DNA of 64,000 bases from Patescibacteria group bacterium (GCA_041670805.1 JBAXYM010000002.1:1309-65308), one strand, 5' to 3'. Counted from the first letter of the stretch, positions 5,054 to 62,040 are shown. Notes: generated by a model from the letters alone, not told the origin. A program made the numbers and translations.

Positions 5054-5251
5054 CCCTGACCCGTTTGCACTTTGAAATCGCTTATTTCAGCCAAATCAAA
5101 AGATAAAATCAATCTTTATTTGTCATTCCAGAATTTCGGTACTCCGAAATATCCGGAATCCCGTAGCTATGCAAAACAAGCATTGTATTTCATTTTTACC
5201 GGCTTGGTAACGGGATCCCGGATATTTGCTGCGCAAATTCCGGGATGACAA
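5054..5251. mobile_element. Family-B MITE-like element (A-less copy, right end truncated).
   Basis: Left TIR CCTGACCCGTTTGCACTTTGAA, then two internal hairpins: TCCGGAATTTCGGTACTCCGAAATATCCGGA and TCCCGGATATTTGCTGCGCAAATTCCGGGA. Confidence 0.7.
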
Positions 5252-5290
5252 GTTAGTGGATTTGATAAAATATTCTCATCTTAATAATCT

Positions 5291-6316
5291 TCACCCCTCC
5301 AGACTTACTTTTTTCACTTCAACCATTTCCAGTTTCTCCTCAATCTCCTCCCGCGACATGACCCCTCTTTCGGCGCCGTATTCCGTAACCTCGCCGCCGC
5401 CGTTGATAACACCGAATTTAAGCGCCGTTTCAAAATTTTCCGTAAGCATATATCCCGCAACCAAACCGGAACCGAAAGCGTCTCCCGCGCCGGTGGTATC
5501 CGTCTGCCGCATCGCGTAGGCGCCCGACTTGAAAATTTCTTCGCCCGCAAAAAAGCAAGCGCCTTTTTTGCCGTCAGTGATGACAACATTAGCCGCGCCC
5601 CAAGACTTGATCGTTTTTATCAATTTAACAATGTCATTGAAATCTTCGCCCGCCAATCCGGAAGAAGCGTCGCTCTTCGCAAGTTCAATCGCTTCGTCTT
5701 TATTGATAATCAAAAGATATGTGAATTTCATAAACTCAAGAAGTTTTTCCTTGCCGGATGAGATTTCCGTTTCGCCCGGATTCCATGCCAGCCTGATACC
5801 GCGGCTCTTCACAACCTCCCCTATCTTACGGAGATTATTTTCAAAATTGTCGCCCAAGGAAGTCAGGTAAATCCATTTGACGCCTTCAATTTCCTCCGGG
5901 TGAATTTCCAAACTGTTAGCCGCACCTTTGTGCGTAAAAATCACCCGCTCCTCCTCCCGGTCGACGGCGTTCAAAACGATAAAAGAAAAAGCGGAGCTCC
6001 GCGCTTCGTCAAGCTGCATCAAGTCGGTGGAAATACCGCGCTTTTGCAAATTTTCCAAAATCGATTTGCCGTTGCCGTCGTTGCCAACCCGTGAAATCAC
6101 CGCCGCGTTCAGCCCCAGCTTGGCAAAAGTCGCCGCTGCATTGCAAGCGCCGCCGCCGAAATTCATCCGCACTTCTTCGCTGCGAATTTTTGCGCCATAC
6201 TCGAAAGCCAGCAACCGCTGAGAAATCAAGTCCTCCGGCGTTTCAATCACTTTCCCCCGATCGGTCAAAAATGTTATGTCGCGAGTCGCCCCGCCAATCG
6301 TAATGATATCAAGCAT
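5291..6316 (-). CDS. PfkB-family carbohydrate kinase (ribokinase-like).
   Basis: DTTGAGDAFGSGLVAGY motif and IITIGGATRD N-terminus. The ORF track extends to 6439, but the conserved N-terminus begins at MLDIITIGG (start at 6316), which avoids overlap with the upstream gene. Confidence 0.75.
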   Translation of the reverse strand: MLDIITIGGATRDITFLTDRGKVIETPEDLISQRLLAFEYGAKIRSEEVRMNFGGGACNAAATFAKLGLNAAVISRVGNDGNGKSILENLQKRGISTDLMQLDEARSSAFSFIVLNAVDREEERVIFTHKGAANSLEIHPEEIEGVKWIYLTSLGDNFENNLRKIGEVVKSRGIRLAWNPGETEISSGKEKLLEFMKFTYLLIINKDEAIELAKSDASSGLAGEDFNDIVKLIKTIKSWGAANVVITDGKKGACFFAGEEIFKSGAYAMRQTDTTGAGDAFGSGLVAGYMLTENFETALKFGVINGGGEVTEYGAERGVMSREEIEEKLEMVEVKKVSLEG

Positions 6317-6413
6317 ATAGCTTCCGATTAATATTCTTGAATATATTATAGCAATTAAAAACGTTTTAATCCAATTATTATGAAAAATCAAAAAGCACCC
6401 GAAAAAATCGCCC

Positions 6414-7052
6414 TCAGCACATTGTATACCATTGTCCATCCAGAGGATCGGTGTACCCTATAAAAGCCAAGATGCTGTTGACTATCACCCATGCGGCAAG
6501 AACATAACCAAAGCCCATAAGCGCCGAACCCAGCACCGATTTGATTTTGACCATTACATCGGTCTCTCCGACGGCCGTCATGGCAATCAGCTGTCCAAGT
6601 ATGATTGCCAGCACCGTAACCACGCCGACTATTTTTATCAGATAATTCAGCACGAGCTGAAGCGTCAGAGGGATAGCGCAGAAATCGCACGCCTTGCATT
6701 CGTCCCACGACGTGTCCGGATCATTAAAATATTTTCCGCAAGGAATAAGCCCGCCCGAACCCGATATGTCGCTGCATTCTGTCGTTGCGGTAGCAGGAGC
6801 GTCGCCGGACTCGGGATAAAGCGGCGCAGGCTCGGATTCCGCAGGAACAACGGCGGCGGGAGTATCGCTATCCGTAGAGGATGCCGGGGTCTGGGCGGGA
6901 GTGTTGCTGTCCGTCGCAAAGGCGGTCGGAGTCGGACTAAATAAAAAAGAGTGCATTTCGTCGGAACGGATATTCGAAGCCGCGCCGTTTTGCAGACTTA
7001 AAAAACCGCACACGAGCACAAGCGCCAAAACCAACATTTTTTTCATATACAC
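6414..7052 (-). CDS. Secreted/membrane protein, possibly a TrbC/VirB2-like conjugative pilin.
   Basis: Signal peptide (MKKMLVLALVLVCGFLSLQ), Thr/Pro/Ser-rich low-complexity linker, Cys-rich stretch (CGKYFNDPDTSWDECKACDFC), then two long hydrophobic helices. This architecture resembles T4SS pilin subunits. Confidence 0.4.
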   Translation of the reverse strand: MYMKKMLVLALVLVCGFLSLQNGAASNIRSDEMHSFLFSPTPTAFATDSNTPAQTPASSTDSDTPAAVVPAESEPAPLYPESGDAPATATTECSDISGSGGLIPCGKYFNDPDTSWDECKACDFCAIPLTLQLVLNYLIKIVGVVTVLAIILGQLIAMTAVGETDVMVKIKSVLGSALMGFGYVLAAWVIVNSILAFIGYTDPLDGQWYTMC

Positions 7053-7160
7053 AACTTAACGTATAAATATTTGAAGCTTTTCCATATTTTAACGATAGGC
7101 GGTTCAGGCACAGACACTATTTCTCCCGAAATAAACTCCGGATTTTGCCATCCTCAATGT

Positions 7161-7238
7161 GGATCACATCAGAAATGATGTGAACAACGCAGGACAAAAC
7201 GTTTTCGCGCAGCATTCACACCATTTCTGGTGTGATCC
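7161..7238. repeat. Family-A palindromic element, copy 1.
   Basis: GGATCACATCAGAAATGATGTGAA...TTCACACCATTTCTGGTGTGATCC, a near-perfect 24-nt inverted-repeat pair around a ~30-nt AACGTT-centred core. Confidence 0.9.
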
Positions 7239-7388: not shown

Positions 7389-8948
7389 CTATTTCTCTAT
7401 CAAACTTCCCAAGACCATCGCCTTGGGCTTCGGAACGTTCAACACGTCCAGGAGCGTTGGAGCGACATTTCCCAAGACTCCGTTTTTATTAAGCCTGCAA
7501 TTTTTCTTCGTCAGACCCTTTTTCACAATGATAAAAGGCACCGGATTTTTGCTGTGCATTGTGGAAATATTTCCCGTCTCGGGATCCAGCATCTCGTCCG
7601 CATTGCCGTGATCGGCGGTAATAATCGCCGCGCCGCCGCTTGCCAAAACTTCGCTCACTACTTTTTCCAAACACTTGTCCAGAAATTCCACCGCGCAGAT
7701 GGTGGCTTTCAAGTTCCCCGTGTGCCCCACCATATCGGCATTGGCATAATTGACCAATATAAAATCATATATGCTGTGTTCAATATTGGAGACGATAACA
7801 TCCGTAATGTCTCCCGCGGACATTTCCGGTTTTTGGTCGTAAGTAAATACGTTTTTGGAGATAATTCTCTCGCGATTCTCCGAAGCGATCGGCTCGCTGT
7901 GCCCGCCATTGATGAAATAAGTTACGTGCGGATATTTTTCCGCTTCGGCGATATAGAGCTGTTTGAATTTTTGCAATACTTTAGGCAAAGTATCCTCCAC
8001 CGCCTGCGAGGCGTAAGCTATCTGCACCGGCAAATCCTGCCCGAAATCAGTCAACGTACACATAAAAACATTGTGCAGAATATGCTTGCGATTCTCGTAG
8101 TCTCGCATCTCCGGCGCGATCAGCATCTTGGTCATCTGACGCGCGCGATCCCCGCGTAAATTAAAAAATATCACCGCATCGTTGTCCTTGATCGTAGCGA
8201 CCGGTCTTCCTTCTTTGTCTACGATAGTGGTCGGAATTATAAACTCGTCAGTGAGTCCGTGGTTGTATGCGTCCTTTATCACCTGCTCGGCGGAATTTCC
8301 TCTGGCGCCTTCGCCCAAAACCATGGCGTCATAAGCGCGCTGCAGTCTGTCCCAATGTTTGACTCGATCCATCGCATAATATCTCCCGCCGATGCTCGCA
8401 ACTTTTCCAACTCCGATTTCTTTGATTTTGTCATTAAGTGCCCGCAAAAACACCAAAGAACTCTTCTCAAAAGCATCGCGACCGTCGGTGAAAAGATGAA
8501 GATAAATTTCCTTGACCCCGCTGTCTTTCGCCATCCGCATCAGAGCAAAGAGATGTTCGGGATCGCTGTGGGGACTGTCCGAATCCGACAAAAGCCCCAT
8601 CATATGCAAATCGGTCTTTTGCGTGAGTGCATGATTGATAGTCCGGCGAATACGCGGATTTTCGAAAAATTTTCCCGACTGGATATCCTCGTTTATGATT
8701 TGCGAATCTTGTTTGATAATTCTGCCCGCTCCGATATTGACATGCCCGGCCTCGCTCCCACTCCGTTCGTTCTCGCTCAATCCGACCGCCAACCCGGTGG
8801 CGTTGAGCTGTGTGTAAGGATATTTGGCGACCAGACTGTCGAAAAAGGGCTTCTTGGCAAGCTCAATTGCATTGCCTTCCGATTTGGGAGCCACCCCCCA
8901 GCCGTCCAGGATAATCAGCATATTTGTAGGTTTTTTCAATTCGGTCAT
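7389..8948 (-). CDS. gpmI: 2,3-bisphosphoglycerate-independent phosphoglycerate mutase (iPGM), copy 1.
   Basis: 519 aa with LIILDGWG at the N-terminus, the catalytic-Ser motif SGSEAGHVNIGAGR, and a C-terminal metal-binding domain (ADHGN). Confidence 0.9.
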   Translation of the reverse strand: MTELKKPTNMLIILDGWGVAPKSEGNAIELAKKPFFDSLVAKYPYTQLNATGLAVGLSENERSGSEAGHVNIGAGRIIKQDSQIINEDIQSGKFFENPRIRRTINHALTQKTDLHMMGLLSDSDSPHSDPEHLFALMRMAKDSGVKEIYLHLFTDGRDAFEKSSLVFLRALNDKIKEIGVGKVASIGGRYYAMDRVKHWDRLQRAYDAMVLGEGARGNSAEQVIKDAYNHGLTDEFIIPTTIVDKEGRPVATIKDNDAVIFFNLRGDRARQMTKMLIAPEMRDYENRKHILHNVFMCTLTDFGQDLPVQIAYASQAVEDTLPKVLQKFKQLYIAEAEKYPHVTYFINGGHSEPIASENRERIISKNVFTYDQKPEMSAGDITDVIVSNIEHSIYDFILVNYANADMVGHTGNLKATICAVEFLDKCLEKVVSEVLASGGAAIITADHGNADEMLDPETGNISTMHSKNPVPFIIVKKGLTKKNCRLNKNGVLGNVAPTLLDVLNVPKPKAMVLGSLIEK

Positions 8949-9080: not shown

Positions 9081-9159
9081 GGATCACACCGGAAATGGTG
9101 TGAAATGCTGCACGAGAACGTTTTGTCCTGCGTTGTTCACACCATTTCTGGTGTGATCC
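9081..9159. repeat. Family-A palindromic element, copy 2 (core inverted relative to copy 1).
   Basis: Same arms, flanked by the outer stem TTTTGCATTC|...|G.AAAT. Confidence 0.9.
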
Positions 9160-9183: not shown

Positions 9184-9321
9184 TGTCATCTCGAAGGAGT
9201 ACTCGACTGAGAGATCTGGGAAATGCACGAAGCTGTGCCGATGTTATTTTCACAGTAAGATTATATTTGCATAGTATTGTTCCCGGATTTCTCAATCGGA
9301 GTACCTCATTTCGAAATGACA
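9184..9321. mobile_element. Family-C MITE (about 140 bp, imperfect ~40-bp TIRs).
   Basis: TGTCATCTCGAAGGAGTACTCGACTGAGAGATCTGGGAA ... TTCCCGGATTTCTCAATCGGAGTACCTCATTTCGAAATGACA. Confidence 0.8.
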
Positions 9322-12491: not shown

Positions 12492-12633
12492 TGTCATTCC
12501 GAAATGAGGTACTCCGATTGAGGAATCTGAGAATAGCAGAAAGTGCTTATGATGTTTTATTGTGGATATAATGTTTTTAAGAATCTTATTTATCTCTCAG
12601 ATCCCTCAGCCGAGTACGACTTTCGAGATGACA
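12492..12633. mobile_element. Family-C MITE, opposite orientation.
   Basis: TGTCATTCCGAAATGAGGTACTCCGATTGAGGAATCTGAGAA ... TTCTCAGATCCCTCAGCCGAGTACGACTTTCGAGATGACA. Confidence 0.8.
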
Positions 12634-14787: not shown

Positions 14788-15031
14788 CCTTTATTCTAAA
14801 TTTTATTATACTCCATTTTTTTCAAAAAACCTAGAGGGAGTCTGCCTGACCCACCCACGCTTTGAGTCGCTTTTTTTAGCCAAATCAAAAGGTAAGATTA
14901 ATCTTTATCTGTCATTTATCTGTCATTCCGAAATTTCGGTACCCCGAAATATCCGGAATCCCGCAACTATACAAGGCAAGTATTGTGTTTCATTTTTATG
15001 AAAGCATTTTGCATTATGGATTCTAGATTTC

Positions 15032-15110
15032 GGATCACACCAGAAATGGCGTGAACCATGCAGGACAAAACGTTCTTGCGCAATATACCGCACCATTTCT
15101 GGTGTGGTCC
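15032..15110. repeat. Family-A element, copy 5 (nested in the family-B composite).
   Basis: Full arms. Confidence 0.9.
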
Positions 15111-15150
15111 GGATGCAAAAAGGCATTTTGGATTCTGGATTTCGGATTTC

Positions 15151-15230
15151 GGATCACACCAGAGATAGTGTGAACCACGCGGGATAAAACCGTTCTTGCG
15201 TAGCATTTCACACCATTTCTGGTGTGGTCC
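15151..15230. repeat. Family-A element, copy 6 (tandem with copy 5 inside the same family-B element).
   Basis: Full arms. Confidence 0.9.
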
Positions 15231-15417
15231 GAATACAAAGCCGGGACAGTTTTTTAGAAAGCAATAGAAAGGCGTCGGGAAGTGCAGGTGGATCAGGGAA
15301 TTCTGCCGATTGCCAATATTTTTATCTAGTCGAGACACAACAAAAAAACGACCATTACGAAAGATCACGCCTACTCCCCACAACAATCTTTTTTCCAACT
15401 TCACGCTTCGCCATCGG

Positions 15418-20208: not shown

Positions 20209-20270
20209 ACAAGCGTCGCAAAAGGTTATTCCTCCTTAAAGACCATAGTCCGCGATAAATATCCTCTATT

Positions 20271-20391
20271 TGTCATTCCGGAATTTCGGTATCCTGAAAT
20301 ATCCGGAATCCCTGTGTTGTATGACTGAACAGACGTTACATATCTTCGTAAAGGGATCCCGGATATCCCCCTCCGGGGATTCCGGGATAAC
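20271..20391. repeat. Family-B core fragment (hairpin pair) between trxB and the ferredoxin gene.
   Basis: TGTCATTCCGGAATTTCGGTATCCTGAAATATCCGGAATCCC...GGATCCCGGATATCCCCCTCCGGGGATTCCGGGATAACAC. Confidence 0.65.
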
Positions 20392-20415
20392 ACGAAAAGA
20401 GAGGATGGTCAAAAC

Positions 20416-20607
20416 CTATTCTTCCGTTACTTTGATCGCTCCTACCGGACAACTGTTTGCCGCCACTTCCACGTCGCCGCTCGCTCCGTTTGCATCAATC
20501 ACTTCCGACTTGCCGTCGTTACCCAAAGAAAAAACCTTCGGACACAGGTTGGCGCAAGCGCCGCATCCGATACAAAGTTCCTGGTCCACTGTTACTTTTT
20601 TTGCCAT
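20416..20607 (-). CDS. Ferredoxin, single [4Fe-4S] cluster type.
   Basis: 63 aa with CIGCGACANLCP and a distal CP (ANSCPVGAI) as the fourth ligand. Confidence 0.75.
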   Translation of the reverse strand: MAKKVTVDQELCIGCGACANLCPKVFSLGNDGKSEVIDANGASGDVEVAANSCPVGAIKVTEE

Positions 20608-20616
20608 AAATTTATT

Positions 20617-21012
20617 TTATTTACCAATTAAATCCTTAATTTTTTCCACCAACGCTTCTCTGGGCTGCAGCCCGGTCATCTCATCAACCACTTCTCCTTT
20701 CTTGAAAAATTTAAGCGCGGGAATGCTCAAAATCTCATACTTACCGGCAATGTTCGGGTTATCATCGACATTCACTTTGCGCACTGTGATTTTCCCTGCG
20801 AATTCTTTCGCCGTCTCTTCCAAAATCGGTCCCATCATTTTACACGGACCGCACCAAGGAGCCCAAAAATCCACCAGCACGACACCGTCATTTTGCAGAA
20901 CTTCCTTGTCGAAACTCTCTTCGTTTATATCCATTTCCATACGTTTTTGCCTTTCTTCAAGATTAGGGTTAAAATTCTCCATCCGATGATCCTTTTCCGC
21001 TTTTGTTAACAA
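20617..21012 (-). CDS. trxA: Thioredoxin.
   Basis: WAPWCGPCK active site. The start is probably downstream of the ORF-track start (about 20940). Confidence 0.85.
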   Translation of the reverse strand: MLTKAEKDHRMENFNPNLEERQKRMEMDINEESFDKEVLQNDGVVLVDFWAPWCGPCKMMGPILEETAKEFAGKITVRKVNVDDNPNIAGKYEILSIPALKFFKKGEVVDEMTGLQPREALVEKIKDLIGK

Positions 21013-23534: not shown

Positions 23535-23666
23535 CTGACCCACCTGCACTTTAAATTACTTATTTTTTTGCTTTCTAAAGGCTGTCATCCCGGAATTTGC
23601 GCAGCAAATATCCGGGATCCCGTTGCTAAGCCGGTAGAAATAAAATACAATACTTGCCTTGCTCCG
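23535..23666. repeat. Family-B fragment (inverted orientation) joined to A copy 11.
   Basis: CTGACCCACCTGCACTTT...GCTTTCTAAAGGCTGTCATCCCGGAATTTGCGCAGCAAATATCCGGGATCCCG. Confidence 0.65.
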
Positions 23667-23683
23667 TTATTATCCTGAATTAT

Positions 23684-23762
23684 GGATCACACCAAAAATG
23701 GTGTGAACGATGCAGGACAAAACGTTTTTTGCGTAGCATTCACACCATTTCTGGTGTGATCC
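23684..23762. repeat. Family-A element, copy 11 (adjacent to a family-B fragment).
   Basis: Full arms. Confidence 0.9.
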
Positions 23763-23962
23763 ACAAATGCAGTCTGAACATTGCCGGTGTTTTCTAAGAC
23801 AGTAAGAACAGTCCTTTTGATTCCGTAAGAACTGTCCTTTCCCCCTGTATTATTCCGGTAAGCAATCCGACTTTTACTCAGACACAAAGCTTTTTCTCCT
23901 GAAATAAAACACGCTTTTTGTCATCCTCGTAAGGATCCCTTAAGCCACTTAATAACCCGGCC

Positions 23963-29361: not shown

Positions 29362-29500
29362 TGTCATTCCGGAATTTCGTTTCGTCGAAATATCCGGAAT
29401 CCCCGTGCCATACAAGACCAATCCTCGACTTGTTGTCTCTCGCCACCGACTTTGTCATCCCGAAAGGCGTACTCGCTTGATAAATCCGAGAAATATGCAA
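29362..29500. repeat. Family-B hairpin fragment plus a family-C-like TIR fragment, upstream of the pilin/T4CP operon.
   Basis: TGTCATTCCGGAATTTCGTTTCGTCGAAATATCCGGAATCCCCG, then TTTGTCATCCCGAAAGGCGTACTCGCTTGATAAATCCGAGAAATATGC. Confidence 0.55.
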
Positions 29501-29578
29501 GACTCTGTCAAGCTGGATCTTGAACCCCCCGTATCAAGCTGCCTAAACACCATTCCCGATATAAACCTCCATTTTTTT

Positions 29579-29810
29579 GCGGGAGCAGGTTTAAACCTGC
29601 TCCCTATGATTTTATTTCAAGACCGGCGATGTTTGTTTCTAACTGCCCATGCTGCTTTGTTACGATTAAATCAATAATAAAACATTCCGAAGCTTAAAAC
29701 CCTATGGAGCGGGTAAATACCCGCTCCCGCAAATACGGACACAAAAAAACAGCGGACCCGAAAATCCGCTATTTTTATCCTATACGCGGGAGCAGGTTTG
29801 AACCTGCTCC
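29579..29810. repeat. Cluster of three short family-G perfect-palindrome hairpins (GCGGGAGCAGGTTTAAACCTGCTCCC and variants).
   Basis: 29579-29604 GCGGGAGCAGGTTTAAACCTGCTCCC; 29706-29727 GGAGCGGGTAAATACCCGCTCC; 29786-29810 GCGGGAGCAGGTTTGAACCTGCTCC. Spacings of about 127 and 80 nt. Confidence 0.8.
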
Positions 29811-29897
29811 TTAATAAACACCTTCAAACTTTCACTTGAAGGCTTTTCCAAAACCGCAAAGGTTTGTGGGCTTGAAAAAAGTTAAGAAAAGAGTATT

Positions 29898-30570: not shown

Positions 30571-30679
30571 CGGAGTAGCATGGCTTTAGCCTGCGCTGCT
30601 ATCCAATGCGGACAGAGCAAACGTATGCGATGCATCTCTTGGCTTGGGACAACCGCGCAGGCTAAAGTCATGCTACTCC
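30571..30679. repeat. Family-D GC-rich palindromic element, copy 1 (in the atp leader).
   Basis: GGAGTAGCATGGCTTTAGCCTGCGC...(variable ~45 nt)...GCGCAGGCTAAAGTCATGCTACTCC, with an inner stem TCCAATGCG/...TTGGGACA. Confidence 0.85.
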
Positions 30680-30845: not shown

Positions 30846-31589
30846 ATGGAAATTTCCATCGCGGCAGAAACAGTCACTCATATATTGGGAATACCGGTTA
30901 CGAATTCCCTGCTGGCTTCGCTGCTCACCACGGTAGTGCTGGTAACCATAAGCTATTTTGCCACCAAAAATCTAAAGGAAGTCCCGAAAGGCATTCAAAA
31001 TATCATAGAGTACGCAGTCGAAAGTCTTTACAATATGATTCAGGACGTGACAAGAGACAAGAAAAAGACTTACAAGTTCTTTCCTTTCGTAGCCACGATT
31101 TTTTTGTTTGTGATGACTTCCAACTGGATGGGGCTTTTGCCGGGATTTTCCACGATAGGCGTCAAAGAAGAAACGGCGGGCGGACACGAGATTGTGGTCG
31201 GATTTTTCCGATCCGCCAACAGCGATCTCAATTCCACCATAGCGCTGGCGGTCGTTTCGGTGCTGTCAATCCAGATTATGGGAATTGCGATGTTAGGCTT
31301 TGCGAAATATGGCAAAAAGTTTATCAACTTGAGCTCCCCTATCGCTTTTTTCATCGGCATTCTGGAAATTATCAGCGAGGTTGCCAAGATGATTTCTTTT
31401 TCGTTCAGGCTTTTCGGAAATATATTCGCCGGCGAGGTTTTGCTTACCGTTATAATGACTATCGCGCCTTTCATTGCGCCGGTGCCGTTTTTCGCGCTGG
31501 AACTCTTCGTGGGAGCGATTCAGGCTTTGGTGTTCGCGATGCTCCTGCTCGTCTTTATGAATACGGCGACGATGTCGGAAGAGCACTAA
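30846..31589 (+). CDS. atpB: F0F1 ATP synthase subunit a.
   Basis: 247 aa polytopic protein with the conserved Arg in the penultimate helix (SFSFRLFGNIFAGE). Confidence 0.9.
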   Translation: MEISIAAETVTHILGIPVTNSLLASLLTTVVLVTISYFATKNLKEVPKGIQNIIEYAVESLYNMIQDVTRDKKKTYKFFPFVATIFLFVMTSNWMGLLPGFSTIGVKEETAGGHEIVVGFFRSANSDLNSTIALAVVSVLSIQIMGIAMLGFAKYGKKFINLSSPIAFFIGILEIISEVAKMISFSFRLFGNIFAGEVLLTVIMTIAPFIAPVPFFALELFVGAIQALVFAMLLLVFMNTATMSEEH

Positions 31590-31650
31590 ATCAAAAAACT
31601 AATAGATTTATATATAGTTTAAGTTAATTAATTTTATCAAAAGAAAAAAT

Positions 31651-31884
31651 ATGGAACTAACGAAAGAATCACTGCAGATCATTTTCGCGTCAGCAACAAT
31701 CGTCATCGGTGCTATCGCTCCGGCAATGGCTATTGGAAAAATCGGTACCGCCGGATTGGAAGCAATCGGACGCAACCCGGAAGCGGCCGGAGATGTAAAA
31801 GGAACTATGATCTTGGCAGTAGCTTTTGCGGAAGCAATCGCTATCTATGCTTTGGTGGTAGCTCTTATCATCAAGTTTGTATAA
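31651..31884 (+). CDS. atpE: F0F1 ATP synthase subunit c.
   Basis: 77-aa hairpin proteolipid with GAIAPAMAIGKIGTAG and the conserved carboxylate helix (AFAEAIAIYALVVALII). Confidence 0.9.
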   Translation: MELTKESLQIIFASATIVIGAIAPAMAIGKIGTAGLEAIGRNPEAAGDVKGTMILAVAFAEAIAIYALVVALIIKFV

Positions 31885-31984
31885 TAAACCGGGGCTTGTC
31901 CCCCTTTTATGTTAGAACATATATTTATGTTCTAAATAAGCGACAAACCGTTATTAATGAGCGAAGCGGAAATCTAATTGATGT

Positions 31985-32095
31985 CGTCCCGGAATTTGCG
32001 CAGCAAATATCCGGGATCCCCGACATGTAAGATAAAACTTTATTGGCTTAGTAGCGGGATTCCGGATATTTCGCAGTAGCGAAATTCCGGAATGA
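31985..32095. repeat. Family-B hairpin pair inside the atpE-atpF spacer.
   Basis: TGTCGTCCCGGAATTTGCGCAGCAAATATCCGGGATCCCC...GGGATTCCGGATATTTCGCAGTAGCGAAATTCCGGAATGACA. Confidence 0.7.
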
Positions 32096-32152
32096 CACCT
32101 TTTTTGTCGCTGATTCGGAATATAAAAATTAATAATTTAAAAGATAAAGACT

Positions 32153-32653: not shown

Positions 32654-32659
32654 AAACTT

Positions 32660-33046: not shown

Positions 33047-33075
33047 ATTTAAATATTTATAAAATAAAAGAATAT

Positions 33076-34608: not shown

Positions 34609-34611
34609 ATC

Positions 34612-34652
34612 TTTGTCATCCTGAGCGGAGCGGAGCGCAGTCGAAGGATCCC
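34612..34652. repeat. Family-E short element in the atpA-atpG spacer.
   Basis: TTTGTCATCCTGAGCGGAGCGGAGCGCAGTCGAAGGATCCC. Confidence 0.7.
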
Positions 34653-34777
34653 TTCACTATCGCCCAAACCCATAATGGCATCGTAGTTCTACCGAGTAAT
34701 AGAAACTTCTCCTAACGTCGGACAAAAAAGTCTGCGTATTAAAACCATAAACAGACCCCAAGCAATAAGTTAATTCT

Positions 34778-35680
34778 ATGCAATCGACCCGAATTATAAA
34801 AAGACAAATCCAGTCTACCAAAAACATCGCCAAGATCACCAAAGCGATGCAGATGGTTTCGGCTGCCAAAATGAGGAAAAGCCAAACGGCGGCGCTTATC
34901 GCCCGACCTTATGCGGAAGCGGCGCTCAAACTTCTGGGCAACGTCAGCAATTCCTTGGAATCGCAAAAGGACTATCCCCTCACCCATAAGCGCGAAGTCA
35001 AAAAGCTTTGCCTCATGGTCATCACTTCCGACAAAGGGTTGTGCGGAGGACTTAACAGCTCGGTGCTCAAAGAAGCGAATAGAATCATTGCGGAAAATCA
35101 AGATAAAGAAATCTGCCTGGTCACTATCGGCAAGAAAGCGGAAAAATTCTTCCGCGGCAAGCAGAACATCGTCGCCATTTTTGACGGCATCGGCGATACA
35201 GTGGAATTGATGGAAACTTTGCCCATCTCGCGCCTTCTGATGAAAGATTTTTTGGCGGAAGATTACGACAAGGTCATTGCCGTCTACACCAACTTTGTTT
35301 CTACACTCAAGCAGACCGTGGAAACAAGGGCATTGCTCCCTATCAGCCAAAAGAGCATCAAGAAAACGATTGATGAACTGGGAGAAGACGAAATCGGACG
35401 TACGAAGAAAATGAAAGACGCGACGGAATATGTTTTCGAGCCGTCGCCGGAAGAAGTCCTCAAAAAACTTCTGCCGAATCTGGTAGAGACGCAAGTTTTC
35501 CACATAGTTTTGGAATCCAATGCCTCCGAGCACAGCGCGCGTATGGTGGCAATGAAAAACTCCACCGACAGCGCGCGGGATTTGCTGGAAGATCTCCAAC
35601 TTTATTACAACAGCGCGAGACAAGGGAAGATTACGCAAGAAATGACAGAAATTGCAGCAGGAGTTGCGGCGCAAGAATAA
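34778..35680 (+). CDS. atpG: F0F1 ATP synthase subunit gamma.
   Basis: N-terminal IKRQIQSTKNIAKITKAMQMVSAAKMRK and a C-terminal conserved helix. Confidence 0.9.
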   Translation: MQSTRIIKRQIQSTKNIAKITKAMQMVSAAKMRKSQTAALIARPYAEAALKLLGNVSNSLESQKDYPLTHKREVKKLCLMVITSDKGLCGGLNSSVLKEANRIIAENQDKEICLVTIGKKAEKFFRGKQNIVAIFDGIGDTVELMETLPISRLLMKDFLAEDYDKVIAVYTNFVSTLKQTVETRALLPISQKSIKKTIDELGEDEIGRTKKMKDATEYVFEPSPEEVLKKLLPNLVETQVFHIVLESNASEHSARMVAMKNSTDSARDLLEDLQLYYNSARQGKITQEMTEIAAGVAAQE

Positions 35681-35756
35681 AATTAGGATATTTGTCTTTC
35701 TGTGGGGTTCCTCTTCCTCATAATAGGGGAATCCGATCAGGGAAATAAACCGCTAT

Positions 35757-35887
35757 TGTCATCTCGAAGGAGTACTCGACTGAGAGATCTGGGAATTGCA
35801 CGCAAACTGGAAAGGTTCAATATGAAGACTTAAACTTTTCGCCATTCCGTACATTCCCCAGATTTCTCAATCGGAGTACCTCATTTC
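35757..35887. mobile_element. Family-C MITE inside the atpG-atpD spacer.
   Basis: Same TIRs as 9184-9321 (TGTCATCTCGAAGGAGTACTCGACTGAGAGATCTGGGAA ... CCAGATTTCTCAATCGGAGTACCTCATTTCGAAATGACA). Confidence 0.8.
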
Positions 35888-36187
35888 GAAATGACAAATA
35901 GAAATTTGATTTCAATAAAGCACGTTAAAAATTTAGAGATTGAGTTTTGGAATAAAAAAGGAGGTGATAAAAATCACAGGCGAGCACATAAAAGAAACAA
36001 GGGAAGATTTAAAATTCAGGAGATTCTATTATAAAGACCTAGCTCTCCACAACGGAAAAACTGTTTTGGAAAAGCTAGAATATTTAATCAGATATTTTTT
36101 AAGTTTTTTCTAAAAAATCTTCCCCAACTTTTTTTCCAAAACCCAATTTCTAAATTAAAATTTTACACATACATTAAACACTTATAG

Positions 36188-37573
<1,386 letters not shown>

Positions 37574-37635
37574 TTTGGAACCTGCCTCTGTCGTTTGCGA
37601 GGAACAATGACGAATATAGAGTTTAAAATAAAATT

Positions 37636-38058
37636 ATGAAAATAGATTTACAAGTAGTCACTCCGGAAAAAATCGCCTTTGAGGGAGAAATCGATCAAAT
37701 CTCGCTTCCGACCAAGAATGGACAGATTACCATACTGCCCAAACATATTTCTTTGGTGAGCACCGTTAAGAGCGGCGAGCTCGTTATCAAAAACGGCGAA
37801 GAAGAAATCTTGATGGCGGTTTATGGCGGCTTTGTGGAAGTACGAAAAAATCAAGTACGGGTTATGACCGATGTCGCGGAAAGGGTGGATGAGATTGACG
37901 AAGAAAAAGCACAGAGGGCTCGCGACGAGGCGCAAAGAAAACTCCAAGAAAAAGACCGGATGGACGATGTTGACTTCGCCGACGCGGTAAGGCAACTGGA
38001 AAAATCTTTGGCTCTGCTGAAAGCCGTCAAGAACATAAAGCGAAGAGGGATAAAATAA
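37636..38058 (+). CDS. atpC: F0F1 ATP synthase subunit epsilon.
   Basis: 140 aa with an N-terminal beta-sandwich and a C-terminal helical hairpin. It follows atpD in the operon. Confidence 0.85.
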   Translation: MKIDLQVVTPEKIAFEGEIDQISLPTKNGQITILPKHISLVSTVKSGELVIKNGEEEILMAVYGGFVEVRKNQVRVMTDVAERVDEIDEEKAQRARDEAQRKLQEKDRMDDVDFADAVRQLEKSLALLKAVKNIKRRGIK

Positions 38059-40891: not shown

Positions 40892-41146
40892 CGGAGTAGC
40901 AGGTGGAGTAGCATGGCTTCAGCCTGCGCCGCTGTCCAATGCAAAAAAGAACAAACGCATATACGTTCGTTCCATCAGCTTGGAACAACCGCGCAGGCTA
41001 AAGCCATGCTACTCCGAGAATTATTCCGTTTTAACATAAACAAAAGACGCGATAAATCGCGTCTCTACAAAGATACGGAAGGTTATTCCCGCATTGGACA
41101 GCAGCGCAGGCTGAAGCCTGCTACTCCGTTTGTCATGCTACTCCAC
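40892..41146. repeat. Family-D element, copy 2 (one full unit plus a partial second unit).
   Basis: GGAGTAGCAGGTGGAGTAGCATGGCTTCAGCCTGCGCC...CGCGCAGGCTAAAGCCATGCTACTCC, then ...GCATTGGACAGCAGCGCAGGCTGAAGCCTGCTACTCC. Confidence 0.85.
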
Positions 41147-48118: not shown

Positions 48119-48286
48119 GCGGAGCACGCAACCCGCGCGAAGTAGCATGGCGGAGTGGCAGGTGGAGTAGCGGGTGGAGTAGCATGGCTTTAGCCTGCGC
48201 GGTTGTCCCAAGTCGCAAAAACTTTCATATACATTCGTTCTCTCCGTATTGGACAGCGGCGCAGGCTAAAGCCGTGCTACTCCGCG
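48119..48286. repeat. Family-D element, copy 4 (left arm reiterated).
   Basis: AGTAGCATGGCGGAGTGGCAGGTGGAGTAGCGGGTGGAGTAGCATGGCTTTAGCCTGCGCGGTTGTCCCAAG...GGACAGCGGCGCAGGCTAAAGCCGTGCTACTCC. Confidence 0.85.
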
Positions 48287-49086
48287 GATGGTTTATTCAA
48301 TAAAACTTTATAAAAAATAAACAGCGGAATGCCGCAAAGCAGCACCCATTGCGTCAAGGTCAAACCGTAAAAACGCGCATCGCAAAAAGTCAAGTCGTCG
48401 CATCGCAAAAAGTCGGCGCCAAAACGAAAAATCGCATATGACGCGATAAAAGCCAAAAAAATATGTCCGTCGCGTTTCCGTTTTGATTTCAATTCGTATA
48501 TCACGCCCGATAAAAATATCAGAAACAATATTTCGTACGAAGCAACCGGATGTCGCAGCGTGCCGTCTGCAAATTCCATTCCCCACGGCAGCGTCGTGAT
48601 TTTGCCGATATGATCACCAATCAAAAAACAACCGAGGCGCACGAAAATGAGCGCGACGACAAAACCGGGGGTCAAAATATCAAACACTTTTTTAAAATCC
48701 CGCTTTTTGTTTTTCAAATAAAGCAGGCTCAAAACTCCGGTCAGCGCCACACCGCCCGCGAGCGAAAAACCGCCATGCACGCCGGTCAAAACGGCGACGC
48801 TTTTTTCCGGACTTGAAAGAAAATAAAAAATACGCCCGCCCACAATCATTCCCGCCAATGAAATAATCATCACGTCCCAGACTGTTTCATCCGCAAGGCG
48901 GGCCTTGCGCGCTTCCTTCAAAGAAATCGCAAGTGCCGCAACAAAACCGAGGGCGACAAAAAGCCCCCATACTTGCAAGGTGAGCGCGCCCAGGTTTATT
49001 TCAGTAAAAGAAAAATACGAAAGCATTTTTATAAAAACAACGGATAACGCGGAGTAGCATGGCTTTAGCCTGCGCGGTTGTCCCAA
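48277..49086 (-). CDS. lgt: Prolipoprotein diacylglyceryl transferase.
   Basis: RLGCFLIGDHIGKITTLPWGMEF matches the Lgt signature (RxGNFxNGELxG...LPWG). The first ~20 codons of the ORF overlap a family-D repeat; the true start is probably MLSYFSF at about 49026. Confidence 0.7.
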   Translation of the reverse strand: MGQPRRLKPCYSALSVVFIKMLSYFSFTEINLGALTLQVWGLFVALGFVAALAISLKEARKARLADETVWDVMIISLAGMIVGGRIFYFLSSPEKSVAVLTGVHGGFSLAGGVALTGVLSLLYLKNKKRDFKKVFDILTPGFVVALIFVRLGCFLIGDHIGKITTLPWGMEFADGTLRHPVASYEILFLIFLSGVIYELKSKRKRDGHIFLAFIASYAIFRFGADFLRCDDLTFCDARFYGLTLTQWVLLCGIPLFIFYKVLLNKPSAE

Positions 49087-49170
49087 GCAAAGAAAACGAT
49101 TGAATATGTTTGTTCTTCCCGCATTGGACAGCGGCGCAGGCTGAAGCCTGCTACTCCGCCATGCTACTCC
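49050..49170. repeat. Family-D element, copy 5 (overlaps the ORF-track N-terminus of lgt).
   Basis: GGAGTAGCATGGCTTTAGCCTGCGCGGTTGTCCCAAGC...GCATTGGACAGCGGCGCAGGCTGAAGCCTGCTACTCC. Confidence 0.85.
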
Positions 49171-51083: not shown

Positions 51084-51371
51084 ATATTTTATAGTTAATG
51101 ATTATGGGTTAATTATAATGTTTTTTGTGGTTTTTGCAAAGGATACATATGTTGTTTGTCACTGCGACTAACATTATGCGGGAGCGGGTATTCACCCGCT
51201 CCTTTTTAGTTCGATTTCAAAGATAAACAAAATCTATTTCCAAAATTGTTATCCGCCTGCGGTAAAATCAATTGTAATAAACGTATAATCTCCCGCGAAT
51301 AGCTTCCTTTTTTGGTTATCGTAAAGGGATTGCCACGTCGGAGTACCTCCTCGCAATGAACAGGTAAGACA

Positions 51372-52711: not shown

Positions 52712-52736
52712 AATTTTCTCTATTAATTTGTCATTC

Positions 52737-52776
52737 TGAACGCAGCGATAGCGGAGTGAAGAATCCCGTTATCATA
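52737..52776. repeat. Family-E element, forward copy upstream of tig.
   Basis: TTGTCATTCTGAACGCAGCGATAGCGGAGTGAAGAATCCC. Confidence 0.7.
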
Positions 52777-52839
52777 CGGACAAAACTTTATATAAGGTTG
52801 TATTAATTATAGTAACCGGAGCTAGCTCATTCTTTTCGC

Positions 52840-52983
52840 GAGAACAGGTTTAAACCTGTTATCAATAGTTCTGTTTCAAAATAAAATAATATGATTGGGC
52901 AAAAAGATATCCGGCACTTTTTATCCGTTCAACATTTTTCTTCTTGAAATCAAACCCCGGAGAGCAGGTTTAAACCTGCTCCC
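52840..52983. repeat. Pair of family-G hairpins between tig and ppaC, with a related copy at 51181-51203.
   Basis: GAGAACAGGTTTAAACCTGTT and GGAGAGCAGGTTTAAACCTGCTCCC; also GGAGCGGGTATTCACCCGCTCC at 51181. Confidence 0.75.
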
Positions 52984-53001
52984 GCAGCCTATGTCTATAC
53001 G

Positions 53002-54003: not shown

Positions 54004-54033
54004 CGTCATCCTGAGGTACTTCGAAGGATCCCG
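54004..54033. repeat. Family-E-like short copy.
   Basis: CGTCATCCTGAGGTACTTCGAAGGATCCCG; similar pieces occur at 23918-23939 and 26197-26220. Confidence 0.55.
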
Positions 54034-54102
54034 CCACTATGCCAATTAATTATACAACAATACGATTGTCCTATTATAATGTTTATCCGCATGGCAAAGA
54101 GA

Positions 54103-54137
54103 TTCTTCACTTCGCTCCGCTACGTTCAGAATGACAG
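54103..54137. repeat. Family-E element, inverted copy downstream of nusA. With 52737-52776 it brackets ppaC.
   Basis: ATTCTTCACTTCGCTCCGCTACGTTCAGAATGACAG, the reverse complement of the 52737 copy. Confidence 0.7.
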
Positions 54138-55372: not shown

Positions 55373-55561
55373 CTGTCGAGTACGACTTTCGCAATACCCG
55401 TTATAAAGAAGCAGTTAATATTTGTCATTTCGAAATGAGGTACTCCGATTGAGAAATCTAGGAACAATACTATGCAAATATAATCTTACTGTAAAAACAA
55501 TACCGACAAAGTCTTCGTGCATTTCTCAGATCTCTCAGTCGAGTACTCCTTCGAGATGACA
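55373..55561. mobile_element. Family-C MITE plus an adjacent TIR fragment, upstream of nusA.
   Basis: CTGTCGAGTACGACTTTCGCAATACC fragment, then a full copy: TGTCATTTCGAAATGAGGTACTCCGATTGAGAAATCTAGGAA ... TCAGATCTCTCAGTCGAGTACTCCTTCGAGATGACA. Confidence 0.75.
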
Positions 55562-55744
55562 AATAGGATTGGTCAAGTTCCGGTATCGGGATTGCCGCGT
55601 CGCCCGGAGTACCGGCTCCTCGCAATTCGAGAGTACTGCCTTTGATTTAAAAAAAACCAATCCGCCGGAAGGTTTTCTCAGAATCAGTCTAAAACTAATA
55701 ACATTATAGCAGATTGATTTTCGGTGTCAAATTGCACCTTGACC

Positions 55745-56170
55745 CACTTGAACTTTGAATCACTTTTTTTGCCGAATTGAAAGGTAAAAAACAATCTTTT
55801 TTGTCATTCCGGAATTTCGGTACTCCGAAATATCCGGAATCCCGTAGCTATGCAAGGCAAGTATTGTATTTCATTTATATGAGAGTATCTTGCATTATGC
55901 ATTATGGACCACACCAGAAATGGTGTGAACCACGCGGGACAAAACGTTCTTGCATAATATTTCACACCATTTCTGGTGTGGTCCAAATGCAAAGCTGGAT
56001 CTCTGATTGATACAGATTTTGATGTCTGTTATAAAACCATATATTTGCGCATAACCCATTTTTATCGGCTTGGTAACGGGATCCCGGATATTTGCTACGC
56101 AAATTCCGGGATAACATCTCTTTAGAAAGCTATAGATAAGCGTCGGGAAGTGCAGGTGAAGTAGAATATG
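55745..56170. mobile_element. Family-B composite element with a nested extended family-A element (the best-preserved full copy).
   Basis: Left TIR CTTGACCCACTTGAACTTTGAA, both internal hairpins present, and a right end CTTTAGAAAGCTATAGATAAGCGTCGGGAAGTGCAGGTGAA. Confidence 0.75.
55906..55984. repeat. Family-A element, copy 15 (nested in a family-B element, with left and right extensions about 55882-56064).
   Basis: Full arms. The insertion is bounded by CATTTATA|...|TCGGCTTGG, whereas the A-less family-B copy at about 5180 reads CATTTTTAC|CGGCTTGG. Confidence 0.9.
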
Positions 56171-60119: not shown

Positions 60120-60142
60120 AAATTGTTTATAACCGGCTTAAA

Positions 60143-60151
60143 TGATATAAT
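60143..60151 (+). promoter_or_regulatory. Extended -10 promoter element (TGaTATAAT) upstream of the second gpmI.
   Basis: TGATATAAT about 40 nt upstream of the ATG. Confidence 0.4.
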
Positions 60152-60189
60152 CATATTAGCAATTTAAGCTCTAAGTGTAAATAATCAAA

Positions 60190-61758
60190 ATGCAAAAAGT
60201 AATTCTCGTCATATTGGACGGCTGGGGCATAAGCAGGGAGGTGGCGGGAAACGCCATCAGGAACGCCCGAACTCCCAATATGGATATGCTGATGTCGTAT
60301 TTTCCCAATACCGTTTTGCAGGCCTCGGGAATCTCCGTCGGGCTGCCTTGGGGCACGATGGGAAATTCCGAAGTCGGACACCTCACTATCGGCAGCGGAA
60401 AAGTGGTGTATCAGAGCCTGCCACGCGTGACCATTTCCATTCAAGACGGCTCTTTTTTCGAGAAAGAGGCGTTGCTGCAAAGTATAAAACACGCCCAAGA
60501 AAACAATTCCTGCATTCACCTCCTCGGACTGTTGAGCGCGGGCAGCGTCCACAGCCACATCAACCACCTTTACGCGCTCTTAAAGCTCTTGAAGATGAAA
60601 AATTTTCCCGCCGAAAAAGTGCTGATACACGTTTTTACTGACGGCAGAGATGTCGACCTTCACTCGGGAATAGATTACATCGCCGAGCTGGAAAAAAATA
60701 TCAAGACGGAGGGCTTCCCGGGAAGGATCGCCAGTGTGATGGGAAGATATTACGCGATGGATCGCAATGAGAATTGGGACCGAACGGCGAAGGCTTACGC
60801 TTGCATGGCAAAGGGCGAGGGTAAACAGGCGGATACGGCGCGCGCGGCGATACTGGAATCTTACGATCGAGAAAAAAGCGACGAATTCGTCGAACCGGTA
60901 ATCATCAAAGACGCAACGGGAAAAGTCAGCACTGTCGGATACGGAGACTCGGTTATACTTTTCAATATCCGCGAAGACCGCGCCCGGCAAATCACCAAAG
61001 CGTTTGTCCTTGACGATTTCAATCATTTTGCAAGGGGAGAAAAAATAGAGGGACTGAATTTTACCACAATGATAGAATATGAAAAAGATTTGCCCGTAAA
61101 TGTGGTTTTTCCTCCCGAGAAAGTAGAAGCGCCTCTGGGCAAAATGTTAAGCGTAGCGGGAGTAAAACAACTCCGAATTGCGGAAACGGAAAAATATGCC
61201 CACGTCACTTACTTCTTCAACGGCGGCGAAGAGAAGCCTTACCCCGGAGAATTTCGAATGCTCGTCCCTTCTCCCAATGTCGAAAGCTACGACCAGACGC
61301 CTCGAATGAGCGCCGAAGAAGTAACCAATAATGTCATCGGGGCGATAGAAGGAAAAGAATACGGTTTTATTTTGGTAAATTTCGCCAACCCCGATATGGT
61401 CGGGCACACGGGAAATATCAAAGCGGCAATAGAAGCGATAGAATTTGTGGATGGATGCGTCGGAAGTATTTATAAGAAAGCCGCAGAAAATGATACAGTG
61501 CTAATTGTAACCGCCGATCACGGCAACGCGGAGGAAATGATCAACACCCGCACCGGCGAAATACTCACCGAACACACCACCAATCCCGTACCTTTCATTT
61601 TGGCAGACCCCCGCCGTCGATTTGAATATCCGCAAAAGCTCGGGCAGAGCAAAGACATAAACGGAATATTGAGTGACATCGCCCCCACGATTTTGGATAT
61701 TATGGAAATCCCCGAACCGAAAGATATGACGGGAACGAGTTTGTTGAGAAGTATGTAA
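60190..61758 (+). CDS. gpmI: 2,3-bisphosphoglycerate-independent phosphoglycerate mutase (iPGM), copy 2 (divergent paralog).
   Basis: VILVILDGWG, GNSEVGHLTIGSGK catalytic Ser, HVFTDGRD, ADHGN. Confidence 0.85.
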   Translation: MQKVILVILDGWGISREVAGNAIRNARTPNMDMLMSYFPNTVLQASGISVGLPWGTMGNSEVGHLTIGSGKVVYQSLPRVTISIQDGSFFEKEALLQSIKHAQENNSCIHLLGLLSAGSVHSHINHLYALLKLLKMKNFPAEKVLIHVFTDGRDVDLHSGIDYIAELEKNIKTEGFPGRIASVMGRYYAMDRNENWDRTAKAYACMAKGEGKQADTARAAILESYDREKSDEFVEPVIIKDATGKVSTVGYGDSVILFNIREDRARQITKAFVLDDFNHFARGEKIEGLNFTTMIEYEKDLPVNVVFPPEKVEAPLGKMLSVAGVKQLRIAETEKYAHVTYFFNGGEEKPYPGEFRMLVPSPNVESYDQTPRMSAEEVTNNVIGAIEGKEYGFILVNFANPDMVGHTGNIKAAIEAIEFVDGCVGSIYKKAAENDTVLIVTADHGNAEEMINTRTGEILTEHTTNPVPFILADPRRRFEYPQKLGQSKDINGILSDIAPTILDIMEIPEPKDMTGTSLLRSM

Positions 61759-61809
61759 AACTTTCCCAGTGTTTTGAATTATGGAAGATATGGCATCCGT
61801 TCCCTTACA

Positions 61810-62040
61810 TGTCCCGGAATTTGCGCAACAGAAAGCCAGCATTTGCATCCGGACCACACCAGAAATGGTGTGAAATATTACGCAAGAACGTTTTGTCCTG
61901 CGTGGTTCACACCATTTCTGATGTGGTCCATAAATCCATAATGCAAAATACACTCGTAAAAATGAAATACAACACTTGTCTTGCACGGCTACGGGATTCC
62001 GGATATTTCGGAGTACCGAAATTCCGGAATGACAGATAAT
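61810..62040. repeat. Family-B half-elements flanking A copy 17.
   Basis: Left ATGTCCCGGAATTTGCGCAACAGAAAG; right GGGATTCCGGATATTTCGGAGTACCGAAATTCCGGAATGACAGATAAT. Confidence 0.65.
61851..61929. repeat. Family-A element, copy 17 (nested between family-B half-elements).
   Basis: Full arms. Confidence 0.9.

Follow-up and report, generated by a model that had tools for sequence, protein, structure and literature searches.

Hairpin repeats sharing a TGTCAT terminus in a Patescibacteria-like chromosome: probable partners of a small GIY-YIG nuclease encoded elsewhere

The DNA considered here, called the window throughout, is a stretch of 64,000 nucleotides from a Patescibacteria group bacterium (GCA_041670805.1 JBAXYM010000002.1:1309-65308), and the subject of this report is a set of short repeats within it, the families B, C and E, which share a terminus beginning with TGTCAT. 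On the opposite strand, the window corresponds to a segment of the 154.8-kb metagenome contig k141_939646 (ENA ERZ27249489), of which approximately 84 kb, the window plus 20 kb of flanks, was read. Its content is that of an ordinary bacterial chromosome, with glycolysis genes, an F1Fo ATP synthase operon, nusA, tig, clpP and uvrC, along with lgt, a Mur ligase, a P-type ATPase, a type IV pilin and a VirD4-like ATPase; no tRNAs are present in the window. Repeats found by self-BLAST make up 5.9 kb in 50 segments, or about 9% of the window, and all of them are intergenic. A preliminary description of this DNA took B, C and E to be families of miniature inverted-repeat transposable elements (MITEs), suggested that a single type of transposase recognises them in trans, and stated that genes for a transposase, integrase or reverse transcriptase are missing from the window. 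The latter statement was borne out: Pfam scans of the approximately 50 largest open reading frames (ORFs) returned housekeeping families only, the unannotated ORFs resemble membrane or low-complexity proteins, and six-frame searches of the window detected neither a Y1 transposase nor a small GIY-YIG gene.

The common terminus is real and not a coincidence. The pattern TGTCATYC occurs 20 times on the two strands, compared with 3.47 +/- 1.85 expected (maximum 8) from dinucleotide shuffles. Sixteen of these occurrences lie within intergenic repeats, and the other four (778, 4707, 47690 and 52078) are chance matches inside genes. The ends of the C family read TGTCATCT or TGTCATTT and are therefore missed by this pattern. 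When a module was defined structurally, with a [CT]GTC tag followed directly by the opening AT of a perfect stem of 5 bp or more, and with a C following the closing AT, 24 modules were found in the window versus 0.93 +/- 0.91 expected (100 shuffles, maximum 4), and all 24 are intergenic. The tag immediately 5' of the stem is TGTC in 23 modules and CGTC in one (54004). Every stem opens with AT and closes with AT, and a C follows it in all modules, with a CCC or CTG tail in the window and a CCA tail in two relatives (L115 and L117). Tag, opening AT, closing AT and following C are constant over the B, B', B'', C, C', E and mini variants; it is the variable interior of the hairpin that makes the families look unrelated.

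The B module reads TGTC-ATTCCGGAATTTCGG-tact-CCGAAATATCCGGAAT-CCC and the B' module TGTC-ATCCCGGAATTTGC-gca-GCAAATATCCGGGAT-CCC, both with a bulged stem of 13-14 bp and a loop of 3-4 nt. The C module (TGTC-ATCTC...GAGAT-CTG) and the E module (TGTC-ATCCT...AGGAT-CCC) consist of a 5-bp clamp around an interior of approximately 18-22 nt, and the mini-module (TGTC-ATCCT-cgta-AGGAT-CCC) has a stem of 5 bp. Folded as single-stranded DNA (ssDNA), the B module of the element at 5121-5250 reaches -14.3 kcal/mol (z -5.2) and its B' module -12.6 (z -5.1), with a z of -5.6 for the whole element; whole C elements fold as long hairpins (9184-9321, z -5.3). The modules are arranged as 10 inverted pairs with their tags outward and 8 solo units. 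The pairs measure 116-142 bp, except for two that are enlarged by a nested element of a second, untagged repeat family (A), and in them the right end is the reverse complement of the left, as the preliminary description had stated. The tagged elements are as follows, with inverted pairs listed without a strand.

5037..5058, + strand: degenerate mini-module TGTCATCCTCATAAGAACCC, on the left border of the conserved flank (5053-5120) found ahead of three B elements
5121..5250: B/B' inverted pair, left TGTCATTCCAGAATTTCGGTACTCCGAAATATCCGGAATCCCG, right (reverse complement) TGTCATCCCGGAATTTGCGCAGCAAATATCCGGGATCCCG, with a conserved spacer of about 50 nt
9184..9321: C/C' inverted pair, TGTCATCTCGAAGGAGTACTCGACTGAGAGATCTGGG ... 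CCCGGATTTCTCAATCGGAGTACCTCATTTCGAAATGACA
12492..12633: C'/C inverted pair in the nudix-glyoxalase spacer
14921..14998, + strand: B module and spacer without a partner, followed by two A-family elements; a short duplication, TGTCATTTATC, stands before it at 14910
20271..20392: B/B'' inverted pair, right TGTTATCCCGGAATCCCCGGAGGGGGATATCCGGGATCCC, with the same outer stem and a different inner stem
23583..23655, + strand: B' module and spacer, followed by an A-family element (23656-23785)
23919..23940, + strand: mini-module TGTCATCCTCGTAAGGATCCCT, 5-bp stem and 4-nt loop, ssDNA fold z -2.8; homologous copy at 4331 of L056
29362..29404, + strand: solo B module
29453..29490, + strand: solo C-like module TGTCATCCCGAAAGGCGTACTCGCTTGATAAATCCGAG
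31982..32097: B'/B inverted pair inside the ATP synthase operon, left tag decayed to TGTCGT
34614..34653, + strand: solo E module TGTCATCCTGAGCGGAGCGGAGCGCAGTCGAAGGATCCCT, 5 nt past the atpA stop codon
35757..35896: C/C' inverted pair between atpG and atpD
52729..52768, + strand: solo E module TGTCATTCTGAACGCAGCGATAGCGGAGTGAAGAATCCCG
54004..54136: E inverted pair, left module with the canonical CGTC tag (CGTCATCCTGAGGTACTTCGAAGGATCCCG)
55423..55561: C'/C inverted pair
55802..56116: B/B' inverted pair with an A-family element in its spacer (half-sites 55906 and 55984), right tag decayed to TGTTAT
61810..62034: B'/B inverted pair with a nested A-family element, left module degenerate (TGTCCCGGAATTTGCGCAACAG)

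Three of these elements, the B'/B pair, a solo E module and a C pair, interrupt the ATP synthase operon (30846-38058) and must therefore be co-transcribed with essential genes. The flanks of several B elements are themselves repeated, on the left at 5053-5120, 14845-14920 and 55736-55801 and on the right at 15253-15290, 56118-56158 and 23540-23582, with CCTGACCC...AATCAAAAGGTAA on one side and TTTAGAAAGCNATAGATAAGCGTCGGGAAGTGCAGGTG on the other; the right-hand flank sequence also follows a truncated C element in a sister assembly (L105). Either B forms part of a larger composite unit or it has landed repeatedly beside the same sequence. The longest ORF at 20270-20989 (+) begins inside a B module (translation start LSFRNFGILKYPES), is of low complexity and unnatural-looking, and has no Pfam match. 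Probably the call is spurious, or the ORF lies antisense to a true minus-strand gene at 20617-21012; it illustrates how false gene calls can be seeded by TGTC repeats.

A 19-mer of the B module (TGTCATYCCGGAATTTSSG) was scanned against one genome per species, 596 Gb in total, on both strands. At least 102 loci were found, where approximately 35 chance matches would be estimated assuming uniform base composition, and the closing arm WATCCGGR, although not demanded by the pattern, continues 85 of the 105 matches listed. The genomes matched include Hyphomonadaceae, Rickettsiales, Bdellovibrionales, Planctomycetia, Anaerolineae, Ignavibacteria, Saccharibacteria and Paceibacterota; the elements of Hyphomonas-type genomes are again tag-outward inverted pairs of 85-115 bp without a duplication. 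The 131 B-type modules compared all have the outer stem CCGGA...TCCGG, but their inner segment occurs in 61 distinct versions, of which 87% form a perfect stem of at least 4 bp from the base, compared with 0% when shuffled. More than 15 different inner arm pairs were seen, all of them Watson-Crick (TTTGC/GCAAA, AGCGC/GCGCT, AGCTC/GAGCT and others). The inner stem thus covaries, and what is conserved is the hairpin rather than its sequence, which points to a folded single strand being recognised. Such covariation is not expected of a DDE transposase that binds double-stranded DNA. The B' module had no BLAST match among 72,556 plasmids, Rfam (gathering score; E <= 5) returned only meaningless matches resembling microRNA precursors on the long hairpins, and a literal literature search for the module sequences returned unrelated primers only.

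The preliminary description had suggested looking for a common target-site duplication and for an insertion sequence (IS) with TGTCAT ends, and neither was found. Around 29 non-redundant inverted pairs, drawn both from the window and from related loci, direct flanking repeats of 2-8 bp were no commoner than in permuted flanks at any offset from -4 to +3 (for k=2 at offset 0, 1 observed versus 0.9 expected), the sole signal in the flanks being a T at -1 (71%) and at -2 (59%). The only IS seen is an ISL3-family element at 5259-6678 of L105, approximately 4 kb past the window start. Its 28-bp ends, GGGTCATACGCAATATATGGTTCTAACC (starting GGGTCATACGC...), are unrelated to the module ends, and it is flanked by a clean 8-bp duplication, ATATTTTC, showing that duplications are detectable in this genome where they exist. 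Different ends and the 8-bp duplication rule this element out as the mobiliser of the modules. Only a 328-aa ORF was called for its transposase and the gene looks truncated; the 154.8-kb contig breaks off inside the element. No transposase family recurs near the modules in the 102 listed loci, which come from many genomes. A search for Y1/RAYT proteins (RAYT, REP-associated tyrosine transposase, where REP stands for repetitive extragenic palindrome) had no match in 1.7 Mb of loci, a weak negative that comes from three seed proteins and a small sample of each genome.

Some spacers of the window can be compared with those of two metagenome relatives, L110 and L111, which share synteny with it between cysK and acs and whose GAPDH proteins are 84% and 82% identical. 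The trxB-gdh spacer, with an A-family element, is 224 bp in the window, 25 bp in L110 and 19 bp in L111; the gdh-tpi spacer, also with an A-family element, is 204 bp in the window and 20 bp in L111; and the nudix-glyoxalase spacer, with its C pair, is 273 bp in the window and 18 bp in L111, L110 being without the glyoxalase gene and hence not comparable. Of the spacers compared, only the last holds a TGTC-tagged element; the trxB-gdh and gdh-tpi comparisons concern the untagged A family, and so show fast spacer turnover in general. At the corresponding site, the nudix-pgk spacer of L110 carries different families of TGTC modules. Since the spacers of the relatives are short at the same sites, the copies are not of ancient vertical inheritance; inheritance at identical positions had been named beforehand as an observation that would refute the MITE interpretation, and the syntenic relatives are without the copies. 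The copies are specific to the lineage, and the comparisons show quick gain or loss of the repeats. Contigs at strain level (98.5-99.9% identical) contained no indels, and hence no filled/empty pairs at nucleotide resolution.

A gene that does recur beside the modules encodes a small GIY-YIG protein, referred to here as ssn after the Ssn proteins described below. Clustering of ORFs at a 100-aa cut-off in the 102 listed loci gave no dominant family because the relevant gene is shorter. Following a literature lead on GIY-YIG genes, ORFs of at least 40 aa in the module loci were searched again, and small GIY-YIG genes were present in 5 of the 102 (L019, L025, L047, L050 and L043), which is far above expectation for a single-copy gene in 8-kb samples. 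A homologue of the protein in L043, a Saccharibacteria metagenome-assembled genome (MAG), is encoded on L189, a contig of a separate sample (ENA ERZ27247350) whose accession number is close to that of the window. This homologue, P0002, is 81% identical to the L043 protein and 43-55% identical to alphaproteobacterial homologues flanked by canonical repeats. It matches the Pfam GIY-YIG family (PF01541) with 63 bits; no specific NCBIfam model and no solved relative among PDB sequences were found for it. The layout on L189 is TTTGTCATTCCGGAATTTCGGTACTCCGAAATATCCGGAATCCCGTTACGATGCAAAACAAAC, approximately 140 bp, the 97-aa GIY-YIG gene (4401-4694), approximately 60 bp and GCGGGATTCCGGATATTTCGGGGTACCGAAATTCCGGAATGACAC, so that the gene has the B module of the window on each side with the tags outward. 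The first 20 nt or so of the ssn-side spacer in L189 match the B spacer, and the upstream spacer of a further locus, L191, matches the B' spacer. L189 also holds two copies of the A family of the window, which is absent from L110 and L111, suggesting that L189 belongs to the lineage of the window or to one very close to it.

At nine of nine ssn loci a TGTC module lies within 375 bp of the gene, and at five of the nine the gene is bracketed by modules with tags outward within 205 bp; one of these five is in an NCBI Patescibacteria genome with quite different long hairpins. The B module stands on both sides in L189 and L190, bracketing is also seen in L191, L195, L047 and L050, and a module is present on at least one side in L196, L043, L019 and L025. 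The gene adjoins murA in L189, L190, L191-194 and L196. Between L189 and L191 GlmS and MurA are approximately 90% identical and Ssn 76%, which, together with the murA adjacency, indicates a single-copy, vertically inherited ssn locus.

We consider it likely that B, C and E are Ssn-related REPs with a CGTC/TGTC tag, present alone or as inverted pairs, whose common frame is read by a small GIY-YIG nuclease encoded elsewhere. The supposed MITE families would then be solo units and tag-outward inverted pairs of one oriented class of hairpin repeat, and TGTCAT...ATC would be the part read by a single-domain endonuclease of the Ssn type. Such an enzyme would bind the hairpin folded on one strand of ssDNA and nick just upstream of the tag, and its gene would be present as a single copy elsewhere in the chromosome with B-type modules on both sides. 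The shared end is most likely the recognition tag of this nuclease rather than a transposase binding site. The enzyme of this lineage would act on B modules and also on C and E, and we infer that the copies have spread through single-strand events initiated by the nuclease and not through cut-and-paste by a transposase. As for the single recogniser acting in trans that was proposed earlier, one protein family encoded elsewhere remains plausible, with the change that it would be a GIY-YIG ssDNA nuclease and not a transposase.

Several points weigh against this interpretation. To our knowledge GIY-YIG nucleases have no strand-transfer chemistry, so that such an enzyme alone does not explain dispersal. 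The ssn gene is absent from the window and from the rest of the approximately 84 kb of contig read, and the link of Ssn to this exact genome would come through relatives that share its repeat families. The C and E modules were never seen beside an ssn gene and are connected with Ssn by the common frame only; alone, they have no significant ssDNA fold (z about 0). Lastly, the published pattern for Ssn-related motifs (SRM), HGTCWYN(0-2)YYVSBRHN(0-5)WNVSBRGN(0-2)RNCYNB, matches once in the window, inside a gene, and finds 0 of the 24 modules.

It is possible, although we regard it as doubtful, that the ssn gene bracketed by B modules is an autonomous parent and that the B inverted pairs are its gene-less derivatives, a proposal that draws on the modules and the adjacent spacer sequence being common to both. 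If so, this would be a duplication-free, single-strand mode of spread started by a GIY-YIG nuclease, and a class of prokaryotic mobile element without a DDE, HUH, serine or tyrosine recombinase. The present lineage would then be well suited to catching the spread in action, as syntenic relatives differ at almost every spacer.

Other explanations have to be weighed against the Ssn interpretation. The one that survives best is that the repeats are structures selected by the host, such as stabilisers of transcript 3' ends, terminators or operon punctuation, copied by recombination only and without a dedicated enzyme. REPs are known in such roles (PMC3733652), all copies in the window are intergenic, and several lie in the ATP synthase operon or immediately after stop codons and must hence be transcribed. 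However, this would leave unexplained why an unpaired tag and a flanking C are conserved across phyla with a free stem interior, and why a GIY-YIG gene is repeatedly bracketed, and close relatives do with spacers of 18-25 bp at the same sites. We consider it improbable as a full account; as a secondary role, a host-selected structural function is compatible with recognition by Ssn.

Less probable still, and in our opinion very unlikely, is that these are REPINs, inverted hairpin pairs whose movement would depend on an HUH tyrosine transposase (RAYT) with a single gene copy elsewhere. REPINs have the same architecture (oriented tag and hairpin, inverted pairs, conserved spacer, no duplication; PMC3116915), and the window also has a GTAG-tagged family, D, of the type associated with RAYTs. 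However, the tag of B, C and E is (C/T)GTC and not GTAG, Di Nocera et al. found no RAYT flanked by CGTC repeats in any species (PMC3733652), the Y1 search in 1.7 Mb of loci was negative, if weakly so, and the gene actually bracketed by B modules is a GIY-YIG nuclease.

Finally, the notion of classical MITEs, that is, internally deleted IS copies with TGTCAT terminal inverted repeats moved in trans by a DDE transposase, accounts for the inverted ends, small size, many copies and intergenic sites, and an ISL3 transposase gene exists just outside the window, but the lack of a duplication at any offset or length, the different ends and clear duplication of the ISL3 element, the lack of any recurring transposase family near the modules in the 102 listed loci, the stem covariation (unexpected where double-stranded ends are recognised), the abundance of solo modules and the assignment to a repeat class without an associated transposase in the published survey (PMC3733652) make it the least credible of the explanations, and the MITE identity given in the preliminary description is not upheld.

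The window contains other repeats as well. Its most abundant family is A, which is not TGTC-tagged and consists of inverted pairs of GGAYCACACCAGARATGGTGTGAA approximately 55 nt apart, each half being a hairpin; 31 half-sites were found versus 0 expected, between 7161 and 63132 (for example 9081-9159, 15032-15230 and 55906-55984). A copies nested in the B elements at 55802-56116 and 61810-62034 imply that this family is or was mobile. It is present in L190 as well as in L189, and is not seen in L110 or L111; no gene that might be its partner was found. The D family (30572-30679, 40905-41015, 48176-48283 and 49051-49158) has half-sites GGAGTAGCAKGGCTTYAGCCTGCGC, a GTAG tag followed by a short hairpin, and looks like a member of the GTAG-tagged, RAYT-associated REP superfamily, in which case the genome would hold both tagged superfamilies; no RAYT gene to go with it was seen. 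An untagged perfect hairpin, GCGGGAGCAGGTTTAAACCTGCTCCC, is repeated at 29567-29620, 29774-29827, 51166-51219, 52826-52879 and 52942-52986, and may be a terminator or another class of repeat. Two paralogous genes for cofactor-independent phosphoglycerate mutase, at 7389-8948 (519 aa) and 60190-61758 (522 aa), cross-match in DNA. The nearest matches in the genome collection are labelled inconsistently, as Saccharibacteria, Paceibacterota, 'Patescibacteria group' and one 'Dehalococcoidales' MAG, and for this reason the host is here given no name more precise than Patescibacteria-like. The closest of these relatives, L056 (clpP 94% identical), carries the Dehalococcoidales label, shares repeat families with MAGs labelled Saccharibacteria and Paceibacterota, and has a 16S rRNA gene followed by a B element at approximately 2200-3700 of its contig.

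With the Ssn interpretation, what began as a puzzle of many MITE families with one terminus and no transposase can be recast as a repeat class and one particular small nuclease whose pairing can be tested. This interpretation would extend the Ssn/SRM system reported in 2025 to a Patescibacteria-like lineage and to hairpins that are long, bulged or weakly paired. As the published SRM pattern misses such hairpins, genome surveys that use it will undercount these repeats. The fast gain and loss suggested by the syntenic relatives bears on whether CGTC-type repeats are mobile and on what moves them, and each pair of enzyme and hairpin is a candidate reagent for site-specific cutting of ssDNA.

Among known systems, MITEs derived from DDE elements (for example Correia/NEMIS and RUP) resemble the window repeats in size, inverted ends, intergenic position and number of copies, but they are accompanied by target-site duplications and by a parent IS whose ends they share; neither was found here. 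The REPIN-RAYT system (Bertels & Rainey 2011) is similar in its inverted pairs of tagged hairpins without a duplication, and in that one single-copy gene, inherited vertically and with the repeat on both sides, acts on many copies that lack the gene. It differs in its tag (GTAG) and in its class of enzyme: RAYT, an HUH tyrosine transposase, works through a covalent intermediate, which a GIY-YIG nuclease does not have.

The CGTC-tagged REP superfamily was defined by Di Nocera, De Gregorio & Rocco (2013, BMC Genomics 14:522; PMC3733652), and its members include dRS3 of Neisseria and RPE-4/-6 of Rickettsia. These repeats have a CGTC tag (or TGTC or CCTC), are mostly inverted dimers with spacers of 20-100 bp and a 3-nt tail, are described as 'not associated to transposase genes', and were collected by a search that bulged or atypical units escaped (PMC3733652). 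The window modules share with them the unpaired CGTC/TGTC tag at one end, the stem starting with A-T and then T-A, the short unpaired tail beginning with C, the prevalence of inverted dimers, often with conserved spacers and commonly as heterodimers, the intergenic location and the lack of a neighbouring transposase. In contrast, published stems are 8-9 bp with loops of 4-5 nt, a size criterion that the window modules fail, with their bulged stem of approximately 13 bp in B, 5-bp clamp in C and E, and 5-bp stem in the mini-modules. The tail is CCC or CTG in the window compared to a consensus of CCA, and the host appears to be Patescibacteria-like rather than an alphaproteobacterium.

The closest parallel is the Ssn system of Chenal et al. 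(2025, Nat Commun 16:2388; PMC11893778), whose repeats are known as NTS or SRM, the Neisseria NTS being CGTCATTCCCGCG..GCGGGAATCYRG. SsnA, a small single-domain GIY-YIG protein, binds and cuts NTS solely as ssDNA and solely on one strand; binding depends critically on the C that follows the palindrome and cutting on the 3 nt that precede it, and ssDNA-specific binding and cleavage were shown for four Ssn homologues (PMC11893778). The motif brackets 42% of ssn homologues on both sides, a repeat-ssn-repeat layout that is IS-like, although a role in the spread of the repeats was put forward as a hypothesis (PMC11893778). The frame (C/T)GTCAT, hairpin, ATC is common to that system and to the window. 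Further parallels are a single-domain GIY-YIG gene, about 95 aa long and with inverted copies of its repeat on either side, which is seen here in relatives, and repeats that far outnumber the gene. The window modules differ in being longer or shorter than the SRM pattern permits, in forming several hairpin families with one tag where the Chenal paper has one motif per enzyme, and in that the window itself is without the gene. The extension beyond what was known is a set of modules missed by the published SRM pattern, with unusually long hairpins that are new within a known repeat superfamily.

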